Virus record (IMG/VR): IMGVR_UViG_2713896792_000001
Span: 1 to 36,662 of that record
DNA: 36,662 nt
DNA from: a virus
Taxonomy: Duplodnaviria > Heunggongvirae > Uroviricota > Caudoviricetes
Strand: one strand, 5' to 3'
The position numbers and the translations under genes are program-made. Every line of letters begins with the position of its first letter. Position 1 is the stretch's first letter. This document shows, piece after piece, positions 23,525-25,600 of this stretch. The notes below the pieces were generated by a model that was given only the letters and a program-made list of their open reading frames with translations, did no database searches and had not been told where the DNA came from.

Positions 23525-24466
23525 TCACCCCCTGAATCCTGCCGGGATCTGGCTGTAGTCCACGTTGTCGTAACTGGATTTGAAGTACGGGTCTTCGCGT
23601 TTTTCGGTGTACGTGCTGACGGACGGCGATAAGCGCAGGGAAAGCTCATCCCATTTTTCCCGCAGCTTCGACGGGCTGAGCACGTTACGGCACCAGAACG
23701 GATCGCGGCTGACGCGGCTGTACATCTCGCAGATTTGTTTGTGAGTACGACCATCCTGCACACACATCAGGCGAATTTCGTTTGCCCAGGCTGTCCAGTT
23801 CGGTTCTTTGGGACGAACCACCTCGCCGTCACATTCGGCAGCCTGCTCGTACAGGGCGATGATTTTTTTCCAGAGCCACTGTGCGCAGGTCAAATCATCC
23901 TGCGTCCCCCACTGGCGCTTTTTAGGGCTGAATACAACCGCATCAGGATGGCGAGTTAAAAAATCCTGTTCATCCGTCTGCGTGTCCGGTTGCGAAGCGT
24001 CCGGACGAGAAGTTTTTTTATCTGACGGATCATGTTTTGATTTTACTGACGGATCCCCGCCAGATTCTGACGGGTGAAAACCCGCTTTTTTGCCAGATTT
24101 CGACGCATCAAATTTTGACGGGTCAGATTTTGATGCGTCAGATTTTGACGGGTCAGAATCTGACAGTTGAGAAAATGCCGCTGCCTGAAGCTTCGCAACG
24201 TTAAGCTGATAAACATTCGACGCATTGCGGTTACCCTGGCGACGCGCCTTACGCGTTAACCAGCCTTCTGCTTCCAGCCGTGCGATAGCCGTTCTGACGG
24301 TACTCATCCCCGCGCCAATCTGGCGGGCAATGGTTTCAATTGATGGCCAGCACACACCTTCGTCATTACTGAAATCAGCCAGGCGGGCCATAATTGCCAC
24401 GCTGGATAATTTCATGCCTGATGCAGCGCAACCATCCCATACATAGCCGGTTAATTTAGTGCTCAT
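23525..24466 (-). CDS. phage replication initiation protein (O-like, N-terminal wHTH)
   Basis: 313-aa ORF; N-terminal helix-turn-helix-like region, low-complexity Asp/Ser/Lys linker encoded by the iteron array, distinct C-terminal domain. Confidence 0.6.
   Translation of the reverse strand: MSTKLTGYVWDGCAASGMKLSSVAIMARLADFSNDEGVCWPSIETIARQIGAGMSTVRTAIARLEAEGWLTRKARRQGNRNASNVYQLNVAKLQAAAFSQLSDSDPSKSDASKSDPSKFDASKSGKKAGFHPSESGGDPSVKSKHDPSDKKTSRPDASQPDTQTDEQDFLTRHPDAVVFSPKKRQWGTQDDLTCAQWLWKKIIALYEQAAECDGEVVRPKEPNWTAWANEIRLMCVQDGRTHKQICEMYSRVSRDPFWCRNVLSPSKLREKWDELSLRLSPSVSTYTEKREDPYFKSSYDNVDYSQIPAGFRG
24020..24166. repeat. iteron array (candidate origin of replication) inside the initiator gene
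   Basis: Tandem approx 15-bp repeats CAGATTTTGACGGGT / CAGATTTTGATGCGT / CAAATTTTGACGGGT / CAGATTTCGACGCAT / CAGATTCTGACGGGT plus TCTGACGG half-sites. Confidence 0.55.
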
Positions 24467-24475
24467 GACCGACCT

Positions 24476-24814
24476 CTATTTCCCTGAATTTACGACGAAA
24501 CTGTTCGAGCGGGCTGAAGCACTCATGCTCATAGCCTTCGCGGAGGTAGATAACCCGTTGTGTTTCCGGCTCCCAACGAATGACTCTGACGGGCACTCCG
24601 TAGTGATCTTTGAACCAGCGGTTAACTTGTCGCAAAGGACTGTCTCCTTCTGCCGGTTGAAATCACCCACAGCCCACTCTGCAAAGCTGTGGGTTACAAT
24701 TTCCCTGTCACCTGGTACATTTACTGCATAGCAATACTCCACCTTCGCTTTTCCACCCGGTACAGGAAGCGCAATCAGTTGCGAGCGACGGTAGTGTGTT
24801 GTTAAACTGTTCAT
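24476..24814 (-). CDS. hypothetical protein (frame uncertain; see findings)
   Basis: 112-aa ORF whose ATG overlaps the CII-like stop (ATGA); its C-terminal half is low-complexity, while an alternative frame (24456-24635, TTG start, AAGGAG SD) encodes a more protein-like 59-aa sequence. Confidence 0.3.
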
Positions 24815-25407
24815 GCGTTAGTTTCTCCACAGTCACGACACGCCACGGCGCCCGGAGCTGCACACTCGCGGGCGTCATTACTTTCTGAAATGCAAAAAAT
24901 TTTGTAGACCAGTGCTGCATGCTCCTGCAGCTTCGAAATTGAGAGGTACAGCTCGTCGTTAATTGCTGTCTTCTCATGCGGTTCCACTACACCGTCTTCA
25001 ATTGCTGAACGAATCTGTTTTGAATAACTGCCGATCTGTTCAATGACTTCCAGCAGGCGCTGGTTAATATCGGCGTTGTCCACATCCTCGACGTCAGGAA
25101 GAGACACAAAGACGCCATTTGCAGACTGCGCCACAGCGTCAGCAATGAAGTGAGTTCCACCAGCACGTTGCAAAATCATTGCCCATCCCAGCGGGAAAAT
25201 CTGATCGCCATCGGCACGAAGGCGGTTAAATAATGCGTTCTCTGTTACATCCAGCCAGTCAGCTGCTTCAGCGTAACCACCCGGCAACTTTGCGATAGTT
25301 TTTCTGACAGCTTTCACGTACCACTCAGGCTGTTTTTCTACTTTCCAGTGATGCTTACCCACGGTTAGCCTCATCGTTCTGTGGTTTCTGTTAATCGATT
25401 TATCCAT
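24811..25407 (-). CDS. CII-like regulatory protein (CP76/YdaT-like, candidate)
   Basis: Track ORF starts at GTG 25476 inside cro; first plausible ATG (Met24, 25407) overlaps cro stop (ATGGATAA); position immediately downstream of cro. Confidence 0.4.
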
Positions 25408-25600
25408 TAGATTTTTCATAAAGCTCAGGTTTAAATGGCAACCGTCCGCAAGTTCTATATGCAGCTTCTGCTGCACGTCCTTTTGGAATTAACTGGCCCG
25501 GACGGTTTCGCCACTGATAAACGGCTTCAGTTGTTATGCCGAAAAAAGCAGCAACTTTCTCAATACTGCCGAAGTAGCTTTCGATATCGTCAGTTGTCAT
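25400..25600 (-). CDS. Cro-like HTH repressor (YdaS family-like)
   Basis: 66-aa ORF divergent from cI, SD GGAGGG; HTH-like segment IEKVAAFFGITTEAVYQWRNR. Confidence 0.6.
   Translation of the reverse strand: MTTDDIESYFGSIEKVAAFFGITTEAVYQWRNRPGQLIPKGRAAEAAYRTCGRLPFKPELYEKSNG

Follow-up and report, generated by a model that had tools for sequence, protein, structure and literature searches.

Gene content and annotation of the locus

The window analysed here, the whole 36,662-nucleotide stretch of IMG/VR virus record IMGVR_UViG_2713896792_000001, includes, on its minus strand, the early-right operon of a lambdoid prophage of the e14/SfII type; in that operon two open reading frames (ORFs) overlap out of frame between a CII-like regulator and a replication-initiator-like gene. 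Frame A (24814..24476, minus strand, TAG stop included) is a ymfM-type ORF of 112 amino acids. Frame B (24635..24456, minus strand) is a DUF4222 gene with a TTG start, encoding 59 amino acids, and its frame is -1 with respect to that of A. The dual-coding segment (24476..24635, minus strand) measures 160 nucleotides, counting the A stop, and comprises codons 61-112 plus the stop of A and codons 1-53 of B; the N-terminal part of A, about codons 1-60 (24636..24814, minus strand), lies outside the overlap and is amino-acid-constrained. Upstream, the ATG of frame A overlaps the TGA of ymfL as ATGA (offset +1), and downstream the last 11 nucleotides of frame B fall inside the initiator gene. The AAGGAG Shine-Dalgarno (SD) sequence of frame B (24649-24644, minus strand) stands 8 nucleotides upstream of its TTG. 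An earlier, sequence-only reading of the window had picked out an A start coupled to the upstream stop, a low-complexity C-terminal half of A, and a second frame beginning eight nucleotides after AAGGAG and ending inside the initiator start; each of these observations holds, as do its coordinates and sequences.

The operon as a whole runs from a cI-like repressor, encoded on the plus strand, through a cro-like gene, the CII-like ymfL, frames A and B and the HTH_36 initiator-like gene to PerC-like, LexA-like and RusA genes. The CII-like regulator ymfL (24811..25362, minus strand) matches Pfam PF06892 (Phage_CP76, E=1.7e-13). The start used for it here is equivalent to that of the Prokaryotic Genome Annotation Pipeline (PGAP), which calls a 552-nucleotide 'protein YmfL' in an identical Escherichia coli record; the longest ORF reaches a GTG at 25476. 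The initiator-like gene (23525..24466, minus strand), with its ATG at 24466-24464, encodes 313 amino acids of the O/primosomal type (Pfam PF13730, HTH_36, E=4.3e-11), and its counterparts in phages SfII and SfIV are annotated as 'O protein family' or 'primosomal protein'.

The region is 100% identical to many E. coli chromosomes and 99% identical to phages SfII and SfIV, and the module is present in 2,701 of the 5,426 complete E. coli genomes searched. Its two frames have been annotated one at a time. For the identical E. coli sequence, PGAP calls frame B only, as a 'DUF4222 domain-containing protein' (WP_001250269.1, at the identical position), and leaves 175 nucleotides between ymfL and B (24636-24810) unannotated, the stretch that encodes the selected N-terminus of ymfM. 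K-12 MG1655 is annotated with frame A alone (ymfM, b1148, 'cell division inhibitor YmfM'), and the 59-residue DUF4222 ORF lies intact at 1,204,001-1,204,180 of NC_000913.3 without an annotated feature. The GenBank records of SfII and vB_EcoM-720R4 also hold frame A only. In none of the annotations inspected do both genes appear together, and a literature search found no paper on the DUF4222/ymfM overlap. Sequence searches against NCBIfam, PADLOC and PDB gave no match for either product.

The products of the two frames

The compact, protein-like character that the sequence-only reading ascribed to frame B goes far beyond what a chance ORF would offer. Frame B matches Pfam PF13973 (DUF4222) with E=8.6e-19 and 67.3 bits, over a gathering cut-off of 27, the match spanning residues 2-53 and profile positions 3-52 of 53, and it matches phrog_1343 with E=2e-34; PF13973 was found in all but one of the 120 homologues listed. 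AlphaFold2 folds the protein into a small beta-barrel of four or five strands and a helix, with a predicted local distance difference test (pLDDT) score of 83.6, and on this model the product is predicted to be a small SH3/Tudor-like barrel. The start codon of B occupies the same aligned position in all lineages compared (ATG in 22, TTG in 3, GTG in 2), and an SD-like purine run precedes it in nearly all loci, with duplex free energies of -6 to -12 kcal/mol and a single outlier at -3.1. Judged by these alignments, the embedded gene appears to have independent translation-initiation signals. Stand-alone DUF4222 homologues precede initiators in Serratia, Yersinia and Citrobacter phages. The C-terminus of B varies with the type of initiator that follows, B reaching 11-92 nucleotides into the initiator gene, and the end of the DUF4222 protein (59, 61, 64, 70 or 86 amino acids in all) is whatever the 5' end of the initiator encodes in the other frame. 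Family membership, start and SD conservation all indicate that frame B is a bona fide, independently initiated DUF4222 gene.

Frame A is identical at 110 of 112 residues to YmfM (b1148) of the K-12 e14 element (MG1655) and has the same flanking genes; it matches phrog_1170 with E=1.7e-70, and no Pfam family. AlphaFold2 places a strand-strand-strand-helix-helix arrangement over residues ~10-66 with modest confidence (pLDDT 55-72). The tail, residues 67-112, is of low complexity, has pLDDT values of 31-45 and is modelled without secondary structure, so that this part of the protein is probably disordered. At least three or four divergent types of A N-terminus recombine onto the same tail, and the joints suggest a recombination hot spot around a conserved 'LC.NLT.GS' segment, which would be the SD and start region of the DUF4222 gene. 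Among database proteins, P0024, P0071, P0076 and P0089 carry differing ymfM N-terminal types on the same tail, and one type occurs on differing tails. We considered phrog_20047 (63 amino acids) as a form of frame A truncated at codon 64 and rejected it: the 63-residue database proteins that were inspected (P0063, P0068 and P0077) are products of indels that lead into the third frame.

Selection on each frame

Scanning genomes with frame B yielded 28 loci, with B identities of 70-98%, in Escherichia, Shigella, Atlantibacter, Citrobacter, Enterobacter, Kosakonia, Kluyvera, Raoultella, Buttiauxella, Silvania and Phytobacter. Four further loci, reached through frame A homologues of 46-56% identity, form a distant group in which B is ~50% identical. 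A scan of viral contigs with the A N-terminus returned 80 copies, all identical, and the diversity used below was taken from the genome scan with B. The overlap is open in both frames at every one of these loci, and the third frame is full of stops.

Nei-Gojobori proportions of nonsynonymous (pN) and synonymous (pS) differences were computed for 135 pairs of loci with the same initiator type. Over the overlap, frame B has pS 0.671 and pN 0.111, with a median pN/pS of 0.157, close to the values for the helix-turn-helix domain of the initiator (pS 0.657, pN 0.071, median 0.109). Read in frame A, the same nucleotides give pS 0.145 and pN 0.259, with a median pN/pS of 1.85. The non-overlapped N-terminal codons of A, taken from 59 pairs of the same length, have pS 0.279, pN 0.126 and a median pN/pS of 0.33, and there the third codon position is the most variable. 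With pN/pS at 0.157 and 0.33, respectively, frame B and the N-terminus of A are protein-coding and under purifying selection. Within the overlap, purifying selection on amino acids was found in B, and the tail of A shows no detectable constraint of this kind. The synonymous divergence of B is not below that of the initiator gene, also in close pairs short of saturation (0.27 vs 0.28; 0.17 vs 0.21). The sequence-only reading had left room for homologues in which frame A would be conserved as a full-length protein and frame B would not; the comparison found A conserved at full length and B conserved more strongly still.

Some of the loci carry taxonomic labels at odds with their content. 'Vagococcus sp. 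WN89Y' (L012, NZ_JBQPOM010000057.1) has a typical enterobacterial lambdoid module under a Gram-positive genus name, and the same enterobacterial type of module is found in a 'Geobacteraceae bacterium' metagenome-assembled genome (L022, DAINBV010000046.1) and in 'Elizabethkingia phage EKP1' (L124), with deltaproteobacterial and Bacteroidota labels. These labels probably reflect contamination, mis-binning or host mis-assignment.

Frame A is kept open across the embedded gene

If the tail of A encodes no constrained peptide, its length still calls for an explanation. In a null model that keeps the B protein and redraws its synonymous codons from the usage of a neighbouring gene, ~2 stops are expected in frame A and the probability of finding it open is ~0.07; all 30 of the 30 distinct sequences are open. 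They can be grouped into 14 lineages that differ from one another by a pS of 0.48 or more (mean 0.73), a distance at which synonymous sites have been re-randomised between them. Frame A is open in 14 of the 14 lineages where 1.2 would be expected, and multiplying the maximum probabilities of the single lineages gives 10^-15.5. A permutation null that we regard as over-conservative puts the probability of an open frame at ~0.35 per sequence, and 0.35^14 still amounts to ~4e-7. Among the five alternative frames, +1, the frame of A relative to B, is the only one that departs from the null.

The avoidance of stops can be followed to single codons. We define a risk context as a Val, Leu or Ile codon of B at which A or G in the third position makes a stop in frame A. 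Stop-making codons occupy 0 of the 140 risk contexts in the overlap, compared with 177 of 813 in the initiator gene at these loci (p=3e-14), and in the harmless contexts of the same overlap A or G is the last base of 47 of 132 such codons (p=1e-17 against 0/140). Even individual sites obey the rule: B codons 14, 16 and 19 are GTG or ATA solely where the next codon begins with C, and codons 4, 18 and 28 alternate between T and C only.

Natural controls are provided by DUF4222 genes that lack a ymfM-type N-terminus, in Serratia, Citrobacter phiNP-like phages, 'Elizabethkingia' EKP1, Yersinia phages and viral contigs. There the +1 frame is broken by 1-5 stops in 11 of 15 lineages, against 0 of 15 lineages that bear ymfM (Fisher p=5e-5). 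Since 11 of the 15 controls are broken, the DUF4222 protein sequence by itself does not force an open +1 frame.

One control lineage with an open +1 frame (L148-L164, IMG/VR contigs, locus about 465-962) has an arrangement of its own, in which another ORF, of 140-165 codons, begins upstream and extends across the whole DUF4222 gene and 79 nucleotides into the initiator gene. The same architecture may have arisen here a second time and independently, or the open frame may be due to chance in a single lineage.

The locus also holds an antisense ORF (plus strand, 24459..24731, 90 amino acids), which we examined as a possible third gene and rejected. It is the complement of B codons, its probability of being open is ~0.45, and 2 of the 14 lineages have it broken. 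Phage records from Klebsiella and Escherichia (L004 and L005, 1709-1996, minus strand) list it as a 'hypothetical protein', most likely through mis-annotation of a shadow ORF.

A fixed stop beside the initiator start

The end of frame A is as constant as its openness. Codon 53 of B is ATA, TTA or CTA, all of them rare, in 27 of 27 distinct sequences, and it always yields TAA or TAG in A; in the window the TAG (24478-24476, minus strand) is composed of B codon 53 (ATA) and the first base of codon 54. From the A stop to the initiator ATG there are 9 nucleotides in the main-group loci, whatever the initiator family, and 6 in one locus with an indel (L028). Given the 9-nucleotide spacing, A and the initiator share a frame and are one stop and three codons apart. 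In the distant group, the distance of the A stop from the initiator ATG is -11, -8 or +3. The stop abuts a short AGG/GGA element at the initiator ribosome-binding site. In one isolate (L193) most of B has been deleted, and the remaining A, of 78 amino acids, still stops on the initiator ATG. In the overlap, then, the avoidance of stops and the fixed stop are the only selected features of A.

At least four unrelated initiator families follow the ymfM/DUF4222 module, all of them beginning ATGAG ('MS'), and because the families share this start the joint of mosaic recombination seems to be at the initiator start codon or immediately behind it. The initiators of L007-L034 (from about 2166 onward) begin MSTKLTGYVWD..., MSLLMPSRPIVINPD..., MNTLIQLLDRP... 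and MSRIFDIVQS.../MSQIFEIVQS....

Two phage loci carry an unannotated DUF4222 gene out of frame within a longer annotated ORF: orf37 of SfV (L120, NC_003444.1, locus 752-1588), of 279 amino acids, and the 'Ant' ORF of an Stx1a phage (L121, LC567823.1, locus 884-1906), of 340 amino acids. In both, the +1 frame is stop-free through ~270 nucleotides into an Rha/Ant-like gene, the true start of which is likely an internal MAT(I/V)P; the ~270-nucleotide stretch is alike in the two ('HIDSAIPGRYTVQAPYKAGAG...').

A probable overlapping gene pair and a possible role of the ymfM tail

We suggest that the locus holds a conserved out-of-frame overlapping gene pair, ymfM and DUF4222, and from the comparison of its homologues we would put the probability of this reading at roughly 0.78. 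Both ORFs are kept by selection, and the tail of A is selected only for the lack of a stop and for ending within 11 nucleotides of the initiator ATG. Because openness and stop position are all that is conserved in the tail, a role for the act of translation, and not for the peptide, is indicated. We posit that ribosomes translating ymfM would enter at the ymfL/ymfM junction, cross the embedded DUF4222 gene along the A tail and be released at the ribosome-binding site of the initiator, in a form of termination-reinitiation coupling; the fixed A stop would also block an in-frame fusion of YmfM to the initiator. The tail would then be a translational bridge that delivers ribosomes to the initiator, a proposal that we put forward tentatively and at somewhat less than even odds. 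Less probable in our estimate, but to be taken seriously, is the alternative that YmfM needs a disordered C-terminal extension of no particular sequence.

The translational bridge has precedents as well as features of its own. As in the termination-reinitiation of trpE-trpD, trpB-trpA and many phage operons, the stop of the upstream frame lies at -11 to +9 of the next start in the ymfM-bearing loci, and ATGA junctions recur along this operon. Coupling normally needs adjacent genes only, whereas here ribosomes would have to read ~52 codons, otherwise without function, that run over another gene. Phage genomes are known to contain genes embedded out of frame, and the pair resembles lambda Rz/Rz1, phiX174 D/E and A/B/K and MS2 L in that one gene lies out of frame in or across another with both kept open, and in that, as in pairs of the Rz/Rz1 type, one frame is highly constrained and the other compositionally odd and loosely constrained. 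In those systems the overprinted frame encodes a functional peptide; in contrast, the overprinted tail of ymfM is without any amino-acid constraint.

Several observations weigh against the overlapping pair or against the bridge. Our literature search found no ribosome profiling that mentions ymfM, and the translation of both frames is predicted from sequence. Four of the 15 ymfM-less lineages are open in the +1 frame, above the roughly 9% of the null, and part of this openness may stem from inheritance or from some other cause. The statistics take saturated lineages as independent, and mosaic recombination blurs the definition of lineages. The bridge itself comes from the geometry of the locus: the initiator has a moderate SD of its own (duplex free energy about -3 to -8 kcal/mol), and no stable or conserved RNA structure was found over its ribosome-binding site (z 0 to 1.5), so that dependence of the initiator on coupling is a proposal based on geometry. 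In the distant group B too ends in ATGA on the initiator start, and B could supply the coupling there. In SfV, finally, frame A lacks the stop and runs on as the 279-residue ORF.

A simpler account would hold that B and a short N-terminal peptide of ymfM alone matter, and that the A tail is an accidentally open passenger whose 112-residue call is over-extended. The pN/pS of 1.85, the predicted disorder, the per-sequence probability of ~0.35 under the permutation null, the four open controls and the isolate whose A of 78 residues lacks most of the tail are all what such an account would lead one to expect. It is nonetheless improbable in our view, since 14 saturated lineages hold zero stops, which even the permutation null makes a matter of ~4e-7, since stop avoidance is context-specific within single sites and since DUF4222 genes without ymfM do gain stops. 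The rare B codon 53, which holds the A stop in 27 of 27 sequences, would moreover serve no purpose unless ribosomes arrive there. When the sequence-only reading offered two genes with an over-extended call as an option, it was therefore right about two genes, the DUF4222 gene having its own SD and start, and wrong about the over-extension, given 14 of 14 open lineages and the fixed stop.

Far less probable is that an ancestral ymfM-DUF4222 fusion has been split by a frameshift, either as a pseudogene or with programmed -1 frameshifting to a fusion of ~119 amino acids, the other option of the sequence-only reading. B is indeed in frame -1 with respect to A, the B frame is open for 18-117 nucleotides upstream of its start in most loci, and rare database proteins of 102-119 amino acids (P0030, P0053, P0060 and P0065) join the A N-terminus to DUF4222. 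These fusions, however, are joined at four different positions in near-identical sequence of the E. coli type, as sporadic indels or sequencing errors would be, and the two-frame layout is found in all of the at least 14 lineages and about ten genera. The window contains no X XXY YYZ heptamer, 23 of 29 loci likewise lack one, and where heptamers do occur their position is not conserved; two loci (L034 and L018) have a stop 0-3 nucleotides upstream of the B ATG; and B has a conserved SD and start and a stand-alone existence in other phages. That frame A alone is real, with B a spurious ORF that matches a Pfam family built from mis-calls, would fit the A-only annotation of the K-12 reference and the inspected phage records and the published phenotype of YmfM, but it can hardly be sustained when the same nucleotides give pN/pS 0.157 in B vs 1.85 in A, when DUF4222 homologues occur without a ymfM overlap, when the fold of B is predicted with confidence and when RgdR, a DUF4222 protein, has genetic evidence of function (PMC10877973).

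Which product inhibits division

The overlap concerns a K-12 gene that already has a name and an assigned function. YmfM has been reported as the SfiC of the e14 element, which is associated with the SOS response and inhibits the formation of Z rings, and expression of the ymfM ORF from pBAD24 blocked Z-ring formation and caused filamentation (bioRxiv 10.1101/2020.11.19.390815). The K-12 gene occupies the same place as frame A, between ymfL and an initiator remnant, with the same ATGA junction. The published YmfM is a single protein of 112 amino acids, whereas in our comparison selection on amino acids is confined to the first ~60 residues. If the pBAD24-ymfM insert spans exactly the ATG to the stop, it would carry the SD, the start and ~53 of the 59 codons of B, and the text of that paper mentions no frame-specific mutant (bioRxiv 10.1101/2020.11.19.390815). 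The original library clone contained ymfL(142-185), all of ymfM and ymfN(1-92), and thus all of B; the screen in uropathogenic E. coli resolved the ymfN-ymfK region only; and a deletion of ymfM also removes most of B. As inserts and deletion covered both frames, the published data do not assign the division block to A or to B. It is possible, though less likely than not, that SfiC is or requires the 59-residue DUF4222 protein, and, relatedly, that the 52-codon tail of ymfM is a conserved bridge and no part of a functional protein. The name 'cell division inhibitor' for ymfM thus rests on experiments that do not separate the two frames.

The one characterised member of the DUF4222 family offers a limited comparison. 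RgdR (ECs1581), encoded by the O-island 51 prophage of enterohaemorrhagic E. coli O157:H7, activates Ler and type III secretion from the locus of enterocyte effacement and affects motility, on genetic evidence, and its Arg-Gly-Asp (RGD) tripeptide is required for activation of type III secretion (PMC10877973). RgdR and frame B are alike in part: both belong to the same Pfam family, are small and prophage-encoded, and were initially missed by annotation (in EDL933 in the case of RgdR). Unlike RgdR, the 59-residue protein of the window lacks RGD, for which reason we class it as a member of the same Pfam family and not as an RgdR orthologue, and what invariably accompanies its gene is a replication initiator and no virulence locus.

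Neither the K-12 nor the PGAP annotation is complete for this module, which roughly one in two of the complete E. coli genomes searched carries. An open frame free of amino-acid constraint, its stop pinned beside the next start, is also a clean natural case in which to ask whether selection on an overlapping frame can act on translation itself and not on the peptide.

A repeat within the initiator gene

Downstream of the overlap, at 24094-24157 (minus strand) within the initiator gene, a 15-nucleotide unit (CAGATTTTGACGGGT) is repeated in tandem 4.3 times and encodes the stretch SDPSKSDASKSD... of the initiator protein. The lambda origin of replication sits inside gene O, and by analogy the repeat looks like a set of origin iterons embedded in the initiator gene.

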